Positions 43,428 to 59,390 of a stretch of DNA of 64,000 nucleotides are shown piece by piece (the first letter of the stretch is position 1; the number at the start of each line of letters is the position of its first letter). The stretch spans positions 1-64,000 of the IMG/VR virus record IMGVR_UViG_3300034170_000023; one strand, given 5' to 3'. The notes beneath the pieces were generated by a model, which saw only the letters and a list, made by a program, of their open reading frames with translations, made no database searches and was not told the DNA's origin. The stretch comes from a virus. The position numbers and the translations under genes were made by a program.

Positions 43428-44666
43428 GTGCAGACTAAAATTGAGCTTCTTGATTCAATCATGGGAAGTGGTAAGACACAGGGTGTGATTCAGTGGATGC
43501 TGAACAATCCTCAGAACAAATACCTGTATGTTAGCCCAATGCTGACAGAAGTAGAAGAACGTATTCCTACAGCTTGTCAAGCACTGGAATTCACATACCC
43601 TTGCACAGAAGAATACAAGACTAAGGGCCAACACCTTCTTAAGCTTCTTGAAGAGGGCTGCAACGTTTCCTTTACACACTCGTTGTTTACTGACTTGACA
43701 AAGCAACACCTTGCACTGATACGGAAACATGAATATGTGTTGATTGTAGATGAAGAAGTAGCTTTCATTGAGCCGTACAAAGGTAACTACAGTCGTGATG
43801 ATATTGTATCGCTTGAGAAAGCTGGTCACATCAGGGTAGAAGAAGACAATCTTGGTCGTGTAGTTTGGCAGTGGTATGATGATAATGAAATGAATGACAC
43901 TGCATACAGCAAGCTTAAGAGAATGTCTGATCTAGGCATGTTGTACTGTGCTAAACGTGATCGTAAGATTATGGTTGTCCACTTACCAATTGAGTTAGTA
44001 CAGTCTTCAAGACGTGTTATCCTTCTTACCTACCTCTTTAAAGGCAGTGTGATGGAATCCTTTATGGATCTTAAAGGGATTGAGATTGTACCATTTGCAG
44101 AAGTAAGACCACTTAAATCAACAACTGATGTACTTAGTAAAGCTAAAAGCCTTATTACTTTTATTGATACAACTACTACAAAAACAGTTTCTAATCTCTC
44201 TATGTCTTCCACTTGGTACAGTAAAAATGCTACTACAGCAGATTTAGAAAAGGTTTCAAATGCTATCTTTTCTGTTTACCGTAAGTTTGGAGATAAAGAA
44301 AGTTTTATCTTTACAGCTCCTAAGTCTCTGGCTGACTACCAATATGTAAAAGATGAAAAACTTAAACGTAACATTATACACAAGAAGATGCCTAAAGACG
44401 TAGACTGGATTTATTGTGGTACTAAAGCAACTAATATGTGGTCACATAAGTCTATTGCTGTCCATGCTTATAATAGATTTGTAAATACAGCTATCAAGGC
44501 TTACTTACAGGATTATGGTACACCACCAGATGATGATATGTTTGCTTTATCTGAGATGGTACAGTGGATTTTCAGGACTTGTATCCGCAATGATGAGCCT
44601 TTACAACTGTGTATTTTGAACAACAGAATGAAAGGTTTGCTTTGTAATTGGCTTAATGGAAATTAG
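43428..44666 (+). CDS. SF2-like helicase/ATPase, copy 1
   Basis: DSIMGSGKT, VDEE, LLTYLF, KATN, EMVQWIFRTCIR; GAGGA RBS with GTG start. Confidence 0.8.
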   Translation: MQTKIELLDSIMGSGKTQGVIQWMLNNPQNKYLYVSPMLTEVEERIPTACQALEFTYPCTEEYKTKGQHLLKLLEEGCNVSFTHSLFTDLTKQHLALIRKHEYVLIVDEEVAFIEPYKGNYSRDDIVSLEKAGHIRVEEDNLGRVVWQWYDDNEMNDTAYSKLKRMSDLGMLYCAKRDRKIMVVHLPIELVQSSRRVILLTYLFKGSVMESFMDLKGIEIVPFAEVRPLKSTTDVLSKAKSLITFIDTTTTKTVSNLSMSSTWYSKNATTADLEKVSNAIFSVYRKFGDKESFIFTAPKSLADYQYVKDEKLKRNIIHKKMPKDVDWIYCGTKATNMWSHKSIAVHAYNRFVNTAIKAYLQDYGTPPDDDMFALSEMVQWIFRTCIRNDEPLQLCILNNRMKGLLCNWLNGN

Positions 44667-44701
44667 TATTTGGGAAGTGAAACGTCCCACTTTTTTCTGG
44701 A

Positions 44702-44743
44702 AGCCTTGATCTACAAGGGCTGTAGAGGTGATCCCTTATAGTA
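44702..44743 (+). repeat. Conserved motif downstream of helicase copy 1
   Basis: AGCCTTGATCTACAAGGGCT-GT-AGAGGTG-AT-CCCTTATAGTA. Confidence 0.8.
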
Positions 44744-44772
44744 AAAGATACTAAGAAGAGGGTTGATTTATC

Positions 44773-45066
44773 ATGACTATTGTGGTTAATAAATACAAAG
44801 TTAATATGTCAGATCCCGATATTGTTTACATTGGAAGGGGTAGCCTATTTGGTAATCCTTTCAAAATGCATAAGGAAGATGACAGACTTAAAGTCATTGA
44901 CCTGTATAGGCATTGGCTATGGGAAGCTTTACAAGATGGTAAGATTACAAAAGAGATGCTTTTAGCTCTTGACGGTAAGAGGTTGGCCTGTTATTGTGCA
45001 CCTAAAGCATGTCATGGTGATGTGTTGATTAAAGCTATTGAGTGGGCTAAAGGAGAACAGGGGTGA
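44773..45066 (+). CDS. DUF4326-like protein
   Basis: YIGRGSLFGNPF...LACYCAPKACHGDVL. Confidence 0.85.
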   Translation: MTIVVNKYKVNMSDPDIVYIGRGSLFGNPFKMHKEDDRLKVIDLYRHWLWEALQDGKITKEMLLALDGKRLACYCAPKACHGDVLIKAIEWAKGEQG

Positions 45067-57830: not shown

Positions 57831-58052
57831 TTACTTACGCTTCCTGTTGTAACTACGTTTCTTATACATCTTCAATGCTTCCTTCTCTTCTTGCTCCACC
57901 TTATCAGCATACTCAAAGTGTTGCTTACACAGAAGCTGTCTGTGTTCCTGAGTCATTCCTTTAGTAGCTACAGTGTCCAGTGTTAATATTTCACCACCTA
58001 GTTTACGGTAGTAGTCTGGAACAGATAGCTCTGATTTTATATCATGTTTCAT
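57831..58052 (-). CDS. Small hypothetical protein
   Basis: AAGGA RBS; basic C-terminus. Confidence 0.55.
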   Translation of the reverse strand: MKHDIKSELSVPDYYRKLGGEILTLDTVATKGMTQEHRQLLCKQHFEYADKVEQEEKEALKMYKKRSYNRKRK

Positions 58053-58087
58053 GTAAAGGTTTTCCTTTTCTTATTTAATGTAGTTCC

Positions 58088-58130
58088 TACTATAAGGGCA
58101 CACCTCTGTAAGCCCCGGTTTATAAGGGCT
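58088..58130 (-). repeat. Conserved motif downstream of helicase copy 2
   Basis: - strand AGCCCTTATAAACCGGGGCT-TAC-AGAGGTG-TG-CCCTTATAGTA. Confidence 0.8.
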
Positions 58131-58163
58131 GTAGGTTTTGAGTGTGGAAGCCTCTCTACAAAC

Positions 58164-59390
58164 TTATTTCTTAGTCATTCCTAGCCACTGTTTAAGTAGT
58201 AATTCCATACGCTTATTCAACACACAGAGTGTTATAGGTTCATCATTTCTGATACGACTTCTCCATATCCATTGTATCATTTCAGACAATGCAAACTTAT
58301 CTTCATCTGGTGGTGTACCGTAGTCCTGTAAGTAAGCCTTGATAACAAGGTTAGGAAACCGATTATAGGCATGTACTAATACAGACTTGTGTGAGTAGAT
58401 ATTTGTTGCCTTTGCACCTGAGTATAGAAACTGGTCATCTGGTATATCTTTGTGTAGGATTGTTCGTTTACGCTTCCTTCCTTTGTCATCATACCTAGTG
58501 CCTACTTCCTTAGCTGATGTAAACAAGAATTCTCCTTTAGGTGCTTTCCTATACATACTGAGCAGTGCTTTAGAGATTAGATCCAGTTCTTCTTTTGATG
58601 CAGAGTTAGCATACCAAGTGAAAGACATAGACAGCTTCTTAACGGCTTTGGTTGTTCTAGTGTCTACAAAGTTAATAAGCCTCTTTGCTTTATCTTTGGT
58701 GTCTGTATCAGAGTAGTACCCTAAATCAGTAAACTTGGATATTTCCACACCTCTCATCTTCATAAAGCATTCCATAAGACTGCCTTCAAATAGATAGGTT
58801 AGGAGAATAGTACGTTTGGAACAGGACACTAACTCTAATGGTAGGTGGATAACCATCATACTCCTGTCCCTCTTTGCACAGTACAACATATCTAGATCAC
58901 ACAGTCTCTTCAGTTTAGAGTATACAGTGCTTCCCTCCATATCATCCCATGTCCAACTAACCTTTCCTAGATTATCAGTGTCAACAAAGATATGCCCGGA
59001 TTTCTCCAAGCTAACGATATCATCTTTACCGTACCCACCTTTGTATGCCTCTATGAAGTTTAGTTCCTCATCTACAATCAAAGTGTATTGGTGTCTTTTG
59101 ATCCAGTATAGGTGCTCCTTAGTCATATCTGAGAACAAAGAGTGAGAGAAAGATATGTTCTTTCCATCCTTTAGAAGTTCCAGAAGGTGTATTGATTTAG
59201 TTTTATATTCCTCTGTGTTAGGGTATGTGAACTCCAAGCTTTCACAAGCTGATGGTATTCGTTCTTCCACTTCACTCAGCATAGGACTTACATATAGGTA
59301 CTTGTTCTGTGGGTTATCTGTCATCCACTTAATGATACCTGTAGTCTTGCCGCTACCCATTACGGCATCCAATACTTCTATCCTAGTCAA
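58164..59390 (-). CDS. SF2-like helicase/ATPase, copy 2 (paralog of 43428-44666)
   Basis: DAVMGSGKT, VDEE, LLTYLF, KATN, EMIQWIWRSRIR; colinear with copy 1. Confidence 0.8.
   Translation of the reverse strand: MTRIEVLDAVMGSGKTTGIIKWMTDNPQNKYLYVSPMLSEVEERIPSACESLEFTYPNTEEYKTKSIHLLELLKDGKNISFSHSLFSDMTKEHLYWIKRHQYTLIVDEELNFIEAYKGGYGKDDIVSLEKSGHIFVDTDNLGKVSWTWDDMEGSTVYSKLKRLCDLDMLYCAKRDRSMMVIHLPLELVSCSKRTILLTYLFEGSLMECFMKMRGVEISKFTDLGYYSDTDTKDKAKRLINFVDTRTTKAVKKLSMSFTWYANSASKEELDLISKALLSMYRKAPKGEFLFTSAKEVGTRYDDKGRKRKRTILHKDIPDDQFLYSGAKATNIYSHKSVLVHAYNRFPNLVIKAYLQDYGTPPDEDKFALSEMIQWIWRSRIRNDEPITLCVLNKRMELLLKQWLGMTKK

Follow-up and report, generated by a model that had tools for sequence, protein, structure and literature searches.

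Why would a phage that has a regular replication fork helicase also carry two diverged copies of another helicase gene, each followed by the same short non-coding element? This question is raised by the virus record IMGVR_UViG_3300034170_000023, a phage genome of 83,207 bp with direct terminal repeats (G000). We analysed its first 64,000 nucleotides (nt), here called the window. The two helicase genes, A and B, are of the YonV type, and a conserved 3' element lies just past the stop codon of each. We compared the genome with those of three related phages (G001, which is complete and has 84 kb, G002 and G003) and with further loci from viral and metagenome contigs and database records, which carry L numbers here. 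It is well supported that gene and element form one hereditary unit, and the comparison shows that the two parts are inherited together and have been exchanged as a block from phage to phage and from one genome position to another. The mechanism of the unit we infer: our best reading, a tentative one drawn from sequence, is a helicase-plus-cis-site module whose site may be origin-like or may serve to load the helicase.

Two YonV-type helicases and their 3' element

The regular fork helicase of G000 is a T7-like primase-helicase (39752-41500, minus strand; phrog_239, E 2.7e-143); a preliminary description of the window had already recognized it. The genome also encodes a DNA polymerase, which is closest to those of Pseudomonas and Acinetobacter phages, an exonuclease and ribonucleotide reductase. 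Gene A (43398-44666, plus strand) encodes 422 amino acids (aa) and gene B (58164-59390, minus strand) 408 aa. Both proteins match phrog_2467 over nearly all residues (E 1.8e-58 for A and 3.8e-62 for B), and the precomputed Pfam family for both window proteins (P0001 and P0013) is PF27199 (YonV_C); our local Pfam search of A and B gave no significant match. The yonV gene of SPbeta is a homolog with 32% identity. In agreement with the preliminary description, which had estimated about 60% identity between colinear paralogs, A and B are identical at 253 of 408 positions (62%, BLASTP) over the full length, and the genes converge with their stop codons (44666 and 58164) 13.5 kb apart. The genome of 83,207 bp has no further copy. 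The start of A had been placed at position 43428, which is indeed an in-frame GTG, as 43362 is an in-frame TTG; however, the ATG at 43398 is the most likely start, as it matches the database protein P0013 and is kept in L093 and L088.

The helicase motifs are complete in both copies. The family has an invariant Walker A, Walker B and motif VI-like QWIWRxxIR; in A these read GSGKT, DEE and QWIFRTCIR. In an alignment of 28 sequences, the invariant residues G12, G14, K15, T16, D107, E108, Q373, R377 and R381 are all present in A and B. An AlphaFold2 model of B built from this alignment (predicted local distance difference test score 89.8) falls among the superfamily 2 (SF2) helicases in Foldseek and VIA-align, with CasDinG, DinG and XPD as nearest relatives (Z 16.5 and 15.6); the best matches are 8e2w (CasDinG, Z 16.5, 343 residues aligned), 2vl7 and 3crv. 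A search of solved structures by sequence with the helicase found nothing relevant. A and B are thus predicted to be two-RecA-domain SF2 ATPases of the uncharacterised YonV family. As modelled, they share with DinG and XPD, including the CRISPR-associated DinG, the two RecA-like domains, the first of which carries an insertion, and motifs I, II and VI. They differ in having only 10-17% identity to these, and in having 408 aa without accessory domains, the helicase core accounting for the entire model of B. They also lack the four-cysteine set of the iron-sulfur domain; since no cysteine is invariant or nearly so among the 28 sequences, YonV-type helicases have no iron-sulfur cluster. What they share with this family is thus limited to the motor core and the site at which the insertion occurs.

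The YonV family is large. With copy B alone, 347 database clusters were found at E 1e-60 or better, and members occur in phages and prophages of several phyla, SPbeta included, with several phages carrying multiple copies. A maximum-likelihood tree has three sub-clades: B-type, A-type (with L089 and L090 as sister group) and G1-type. This shows that the two copies of G000 belong to two old sub-lineages and do not stem from a recent tandem duplication. Copy B is syntenic with the single helicase copy of G001, which stands at the B position.

The motif that the preliminary description had reported 33-35 nt past each stop codon, within unrelated flanks, is present letter for letter and occurs twice in the genome. 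In A it reads AGCCT-N10-GGGCT-GT-AGAGGTG-AT-CCCTTATAGTA (44702-44743, plus strand) and begins 35 nt past the stop; in B it reads AGCCC-N10-GGGCT-TAC-AGAGGTG-TG-CCCTTATAGTA (58130-58088, minus strand) and begins 33 nt past the stop. Beyond the motif, the DNA of A and B is unrelated. Perfect matches to the 20-nt core AGAGGTGNNCCCTTATAGTA number exactly two, whether the window or the entire genome is searched, where chance would yield 0.05; one further match, with three mismatches, lies inside a structural gene. A CC(C)TT box had been described as an inverted pair plus a direct copy. This arrangement (CCTT, AAGG, CCCTT) is complete in copy A but not in copy B, whose middle box is GGGG and which has no AAGG.

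The conserved element extends beyond this motif on both sides. In copy A (44693-44757, plus strand; nhmmer profile E 3e-11) it consists of an imperfect hairpin, TCTG-GA-AGCCTTG..CAAGGGCT-G-TAGA (44696-44726), whose register is supported, the box AGAGGTGATCCCTTATAGTA (44724-44743) and a purine-rich tail. In copy B (58074-58134, minus strand; nhmmer E 7.6e-10) it consists of the hairpin AGCCC..GGGCT and the box AGAGGTGTGCCCTTATAGTA (58107-58088). Between the stop codon of A and its element we read from the sequence a separate, terminator-like hairpin, TGGGA-N9-TCCCA followed by CTTTTTTCT (44671-44697, plus strand). It is conserved in L093 and, in structure, in L088; our terminator scan, which had a loop limit of 8 nt, did not list it.

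Inheritance and exchange of gene and element

If the element belongs to the gene, it should be found with the gene in other genomes. We examined 16 relatives with 45-98% protein identity from viral and metagenome contigs. In all relatives with at least about 45% identity, an element of about 65 nt lies 29-58 nt past the stop codon, and the alignment is gap-free over about 70 nt. Its consensus is TTCTGRA, a variable hairpin top, GGCT-N-YAGAGG, N4, CCCTTAWRG and a purine-rich run; that is, an imperfect hairpin of about 31 nt, AGAGG-N4-CCCTTAWRG and a purine-rich tail. The profile of the element has two matches in G000 and one each in G001, G002 and G003, all behind the helicase gene, and no other significant match anywhere in these four genomes. 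Loose motif patterns gave nothing meaningful in the same genomes, and when the element was compared with 50,697 phage records by blastn, all matches were of chance level. In diverged pairs, the 50-nt core of the element is more alike than the fourfold-degenerate positions of the adjoining gene (e.g. 0.70 vs 0.46 and 0.76 vs 0.44), and the element is thus under selection. The gene-plus-cis-site unit that the preliminary description had proposed is borne out by this linkage, by the three genome positions at which the unit occurs (see below) and by the absence of the element elsewhere in the four genomes.

The unit has also moved as a block. Positions 43319-44757 of G000 have 91% DNA identity to L093 and positions 43309-44764 have 88% identity to L088, with 98% and 96% aa identity between the respective helicases and A. 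The DNA and the proteins that flank cassette A are unrelated to those of L093 and L088. Homology starts about 80-110 nt before gene A and ends at 44748-44764, which is 5-20 nt past the box; contigs from two other public runs break at 44748. From the matched blocks and unrelated flanks we conclude that a block of about 1.44 kb is exchanged, which comprises the leader, the gene, the terminator-like hairpin and the element. The 5' boundary region (43319-43397, plus strand) holds the leader before the ATG at 43398 and a TTTACT/TTGACT hexamer that looks promoter-like, its role as a promoter being inferred from sequence. The first gene past element A encodes a DUF4326 protein of 97 aa (44773-45066, plus strand; Pfam E 1e-23) and lies outside the cassette, as L093 and L088 carry other genes there. 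Upstream, the 68 nt at 42956-43023 are 97% identical in L088 and contain the promoter-like TTGACT-16-TATGAT and the start of an 80-aa zinc-ribbon-like open reading frame (ORF), whereas the DNA between them and the cassette differs from L088. This is a second conserved signal at a mosaic border.

The three sub-clades occupy three genome positions. G1-type genes and copy B lie at the end of the leftward block and face the early genes, A-type genes lie just past the divergent promoter that adjoins the replication module, and the genes of L089 and L090 are found where the structural block ends, with the ribonucleotide reductase genes on their other side.

Homing endonucleases may have contributed to this mosaic structure. 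The Vibrio phage vB_VhaM_VH-8 (VH-8; MN497415.1; L086, L173 and L174) has three diverged YonV-like genes, all annotated as hypothetical, and directly behind each stands a homing-endonuclease-like gene that differs from copy to copy (NUMOD1, GIY-YIG, and DUF723 plus T5orf172). Among 26 downstream ORFs at other loci there are up to seven Pfam matches to six families of homing-endonuclease type, counted as matches and not as distinct ORFs. No homing endonuclease gene adjoins A or B in G000. These neighbours fit a conserved gene that is targeted by homing endonucleases, and they help explain the mosaic borders.

A possible origin-like site and its alternatives

What could the element do? A weak profile match led to VH-8, where CCCTTGATACATAAGGGTTTGAGAGG-N16-CCCTTAAAGAAAGGATACTAA lies about 40 nt upstream of the second copy, in a gap of about 1.6 kb with few ORFs. 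This copy and those of the SPbeta-like prophages carry the hairpin CCCTTGATACATAAGGG, and we refer to such copies as canonical. In SPbeta-like prophages, AACCCTTG(A/G)TACATAAGGGTT is found 35 nt past yonV, and the SPbeta-type group L025 keeps GAGGGGTGTGTCCCTTAAAG. When plasmids were searched with the VH-8 element, the same 20-22 nt were found in several mobile elements. In 12-kb Bacillus plasmids, one of which (from B. siamensis) has a Zot-like gene, the hairpin lies about 70 nt upstream of genes annotated as 'replication initiation protein', for which no HUH family assignment was achieved. In Acinetobacter pARA8 it lies directly before four iterons and repM (Rep_3); these iterons (L179:2232-2325) are 22 nt long (ATATCACTACGTTTATCGACCC). 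A Vibrio phage-plasmid has it on either side of parAB, and S. aureus pWBG758 and a C. botulinum phage-plasmid carry it between genes. Two further observations were made at these loci. In Vibrio fluvialis pIDH5335-2, the copies that flank parA-parB (L181:79 and L181:2510) extend over 48 nt with the hairpin CCCTTGCTACATAAGGC and differ from each other at one base; they may be centromere-like sites or paired terminators. In C. botulinum p1 (NZ_CP063817.1), the hairpin is preceded, at a distance of about 220 nt, by a match resembling the twister-P1 ribozyme (L183:2189-2278), which at 53 bits (E 2e-9) stays under the gathering score of 67.

The canonical hairpin resembles the replication origins of two rolling-circle plasmids. 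According to their records, pC194 has TTCTTATCTTGATAATAAGGGTAACTATTGCCGGCGAGGCTAGTTACCCTTAAG and reads TCTTGATAATAAGGGTAAC...GAGGCTAGTTACCCTTAAG, and pUB110 has CTTATCTTGATACATATAG about 176 nt upstream of rep and reads CTTGATACATATAG. The origin of pC194 has been given on the complementary strand as TATTAT/CAAGATAAGAAAGA (PMC5037232), so that the nick on the plus strand is CTTG/ATAATA. The loop and 3' arm of the canonical hairpin coincide with the nick region of pC194 and pUB110, CTTGATA(C)ATAAGGG, and GAGG and the CCCTTAAG box come after it. The canonical copies in VH-8, SPbeta-like prophages and the 12-kb Bacillus plasmids contain CTTGATACATA, as does pUB110, and CTTGATA-ATAAGGGT, as does pC194; in addition, the element adjoins a replication protein gene, as in these plasmids. 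The CCCTTAAG box starts 39 nt past CTTGATA in both pC194 and VH-8 and 28 nt in G000, about one helical turn less. A profile built solely from the canonical hairpins of other mobile elements has its best match in G000 at 44695-44729 (E 0.04), and in L093 it reaches E 0.02.

Each copy is a two-part hereditary unit of a YonV-family SF2 motor gene and a non-coding element of fixed geometry. Based on the likenesses above, the element would be a nucleic-acid recognition site of the rolling-circle-origin type, to which the neighbouring helicase is loaded or at which it exerts its action. Strand displacement for replication or recombination-dependent replication may start there from a nick or an extruded hairpin, and the nicking activity, if any, would have to come from another protein. 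Under this reading the element would not be an ordinary promoter or terminator. In the G000 clade this is supported over a plain terminator or promoter by the lack of a U-tract, by the lack of a -35 hexamer and by the terminator-like hairpin that A has of its own.

Several observations weigh against an origin-like site. The neighbouring gene encodes an SF2 helicase and not a nickase: Pfam finds no nuclease or recombinase domain in A or B. No Rep_1 HUH initiator (PF01446) was found in the 83-kb genome at E up to 1, in a search that covered this HUH family alone. The copies of G000 are degenerate: the match of copy A to the canonical-hairpin profile is weak and copy B is unmatched; the equivalent of the nick site in A is CTTGATC, and copy B (CCCTTATAA), which lacks the G, and all G1-type relatives have no CTTGATA. 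Pairwise similarity between the G000 element and SPbeta-type elements is marginal (p about 0.02-0.06). Other mobile elements carry the hairpin but no YonV-like gene, and as it is found behind parB and in other intergenic places, it is specific neither to helicases nor to origins. In Firmicutes, a U-run follows the hairpin, which carries an annotation as a stem-loop at the end of the yonSTUV operon and might be no more than a transcription terminator. Lastly, the linkage of the motif to homologs elsewhere, on which the preliminary description had made its proposal depend, holds for relatives with at least about 45% identity but often not for more distant homologs. These include Acinetobacter phages, the first copy of VH-8 and many gut and rumen contigs, where the element is often missing because the next gene abuts.

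The preliminary description had also considered a replication initiator with its own origin, by analogy with herpesvirus UL9. This form of the idea is not supported: the Herpes_ori_bp profile reaches E 0.037 and 12.5 bits (cut-off 20) over residues 4-25, which are Walker A, and copy A is unmatched. As a nick region of the rolling-circle type, the origin idea gains indirect support from the canonical hairpins and the plasmid initiators next to them. Modules in which an initiator stands next to its origin include herpesvirus UL9 with oriS and PriA with its hairpin assembly site. The YonV unit would be analogous to these in pairing an SF2 motor with a structured DNA site that is inherited with it, but it differs in that no origin-binding domain was identified in YonV proteins, in addition to the unmatched UL9 profile. 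A wider claim would be that YonV helicases and the hairpin-box element form an undescribed portable module for replication initiation or helicase loading, that occurs in virulent Gram-negative phages as well as in SPbeta-like prophages and small plasmids. Such a module would be akin to rolling-circle origins, with an SF2 motor as its linked protein instead of an HUH nickase, and its duplication in G000 would have given two sites that bracket the early region. We regard this wider claim as speculative and rather doubtful.

A terminator or regulatory element is nearly as likely as an origin-like site. The element could be a 3' cis-regulatory signal of the helicase transcript, composed of an ancestral terminator or attenuator hairpin and a box recognized by a protein or the ribosome, with no role in replication. 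It would then stay by the gene because it controls the expression of the gene or its insulation from neighbours. This is possible, and several findings point to it. The element always lies on the sense strand just past the stop codon, and its box contains a Shine-Dalgarno-like AGAGG(TGATC). In SPbeta-like prophages the hairpin is followed by UUUU and closes the yonT-yoyJ-yonU-yonV operon, which is expressed in lysogens, and the hairpin behind parB is where a terminator would be expected. The extended hairpin TCTG-RA-AGCC..GGCT-N-YAGA is modestly supported as an RNA structure: 70.6% of cells pair, with a sharp optimum at this register and one clearly covarying pair, and G-U pairs on the sense strand outnumber A-C pairs (25 vs 16).

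Against such a signal, the position of the VH-8 element upstream of its gene is not that of a 3' signal, and the loop identity of 20-22 nt across phyla exceeds what termination needs. Furthermore, copy A already has a hairpin plus T6 ahead of the element. The motif hairpin is followed by CTGTAGAGG in A and CTTACAGAGG in B, without a U-run, and the terminator scan detected no intrinsic terminator at either motif; a hairpin with a U-run was seen by eye in SPbeta-type versions, as was the separate hairpin at 44671-44697. This lack of a U-tract speaks against the element being solely a terminator in the G000 clade. RNAalifold found no consensus structure for the 16 elements. Pairing between the halves of the box (CTGTAGAGG with CCCTTATAG) and between AAGGG and CCCTT was no better than in shuffled columns and showed no covariation. 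Rfam 15 had no match at E up to 1 on the elements of G000 and G001 type, nor any match on six hairpin loci (VH-8 and five plasmids). As a further possibility we considered a small ORF in the element and rejected it, as its GTG-initiated peptides of 3-12 codons are not conserved.

Could the unit instead be a selfish mobile cassette, or ride with one? It would spread by gene conversion driven by homing endonucleases or by replication-linked 'origin-gene' transfer, with the element marking its 3' end. This appears unlikely to us. The sharp boundaries of homology in unrelated flanks, the three genome positions and the multiple copies in several phages agree with it, as do the different endonuclease-like gene behind each of the three VH-8 copies and the matches of this type among the other downstream ORFs. 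In addition, a model of transfer bounded by the double-strand origin (DSO) has been proposed for segments of rolling-circle plasmids that consist of DSO, gene and single-strand origin (SSO) (PMC5037232). However, neither terminal repeats nor target duplications nor a clean empty site were found, the helicase itself has no nuclease or recombinase domain and no endonuclease gene adjoins the G000 copies. The putative nick site and the junction do not coincide, the latter being 35-50 nt further on. Moreover, phage early regions often show mosaic junctions at regulatory elements even where no dedicated mechanism is at work. Of the mobile element with the motif as its 3' end that the preliminary description had offered as its second option, we thus retain the exchanged cassette with homology stopping just past the box, but not an autonomous element.

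Mobile regulatory cassettes of phage early regions include the promoter-stem-loop cassettes of T4. The YonV cassette resembles these, and the DSO-gene-SSO segments (PMC5037232), in that a gene more conserved than its surroundings has short, conserved non-coding signals at its borders and passes from genome to genome with no transposase involved. It differs in that the signal in G000 is specific to one gene family and present once per copy, and is not a scattered repeat.

Least probable of all is that the box is a promoter with a -10-like TATAGT and a phage or host activator, serving the downstream gene or a short RNA: the boxes of A-type and B-type copies do have TATAGT, TATAAT or TATACT, a ribosome site and start codon follow 25-30 nt downstream in both G000 copies, all copies have a purine-rich stretch past the box and the terminator 60-100 nt downstream in G1-type relatives would give a small RNA, but there is no -35 hexamer and no extended -10, G1-type and Firmicute versions have TAAGAG or TAGAAG without the T at -7, L093 and L088 have a separate consensus promoter right behind the element, and each genome offers just two such sites and lacks a gene for a phage RNA polymerase.

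Specific promoter classes were rejected as well. A sigma-70 scan of 42.0-60.5 kb listed 49 sites, many of them strong ones in the early region and none at either motif. No consistent -35/-10 pair exists at conserved columns on either strand, as the TATAGT in the box lacks a -35 partner and is replaced by TAAGAG or TAAAGA in relatives. A promoter for a single-subunit polymerase like those of SP6 or T3 was discarded despite a slight likeness of the box: G000 has no ORF of the size of such a polymerase, and there are two sites only. In L097 (2300-2320; also in L098 and L099), the hairpin top reads TGGCAC-N5-TTGCA, the perfect -24/-12 consensus of sigma-54, whereas the -12 position of close relatives reads CTGTA or CTACA. 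As the sequence is perfect in this lineage only and degenerate or absent otherwise, we take it as a lineage quirk and not as a sigma-54 promoter.

Surroundings of copy B and significance

Downstream of element B, a 73-aa ORF (57831-58052, minus strand) lies between the element and a terminator. It is absent in G1-type relatives and has no family match above the curated cut-off. The terminator-like hairpin, GGGAGTCA..TGACTCC with a T-run (57761-57793, minus strand), closes the leftward unit and is preceded by the C-rich CCAATTCCCCC; the same architecture is found directly behind the element in G1-type relatives. We considered the C-rich CCCAAACCCC motif as a part of the helicase unit and rejected this, as it belongs to genome position B instead. 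At the point of convergence there is a non-coding island of about 0.8 kb (57004-57830) with repeats of TAAGCAACACTC. Copies on the same strand lie at 57544-57555 and 57694-57705 in the island and at 57916-57927 in the 73-aa ORF, and of four matches in the 64 kb that have no more than one mismatch, these three cluster within 400 bp. Parts of the island recur in relatives (GAATATCTATAGG after the terminator, GAGGGTCTTA...). Judging from these repeats, the island is a candidate for an iteron or origin region or for an RNA locus.

Two genes upstream of copy B lies a gene for a DprA-like recombination mediator (59619-60176; phrog_768, E 1e-68). The early region contains a second pair of paralogs (49827-50522 and 51885-52634; 231 and 249 aa), which both match the same protein of G001 (35% and 32% identity) and have no Pfam family.

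What is new here is the linkage of an element of fixed length to its gene down to about 45% protein identity, the 1.44-kb cassette, the likeness of the canonical hairpin to the nick region and the endonuclease neighbours. The YonV family is found in several phyla without an assigned function, and a co-inherited, origin-like partner gives a concrete functional hypothesis. This hypothesis can be tested in a tractable system, namely yonV of SPbeta and its hairpin in Bacillus subtilis. The presence of the same hairpin by plasmid initiator genes points to a so far uncatalogued cis element that may be widespread in mobile DNA. If the element were only a terminator, the unit would still be a clear gene-plus-signal cassette that shuffles through the early regions of phages, from a gene family that attracts homing endonucleases.

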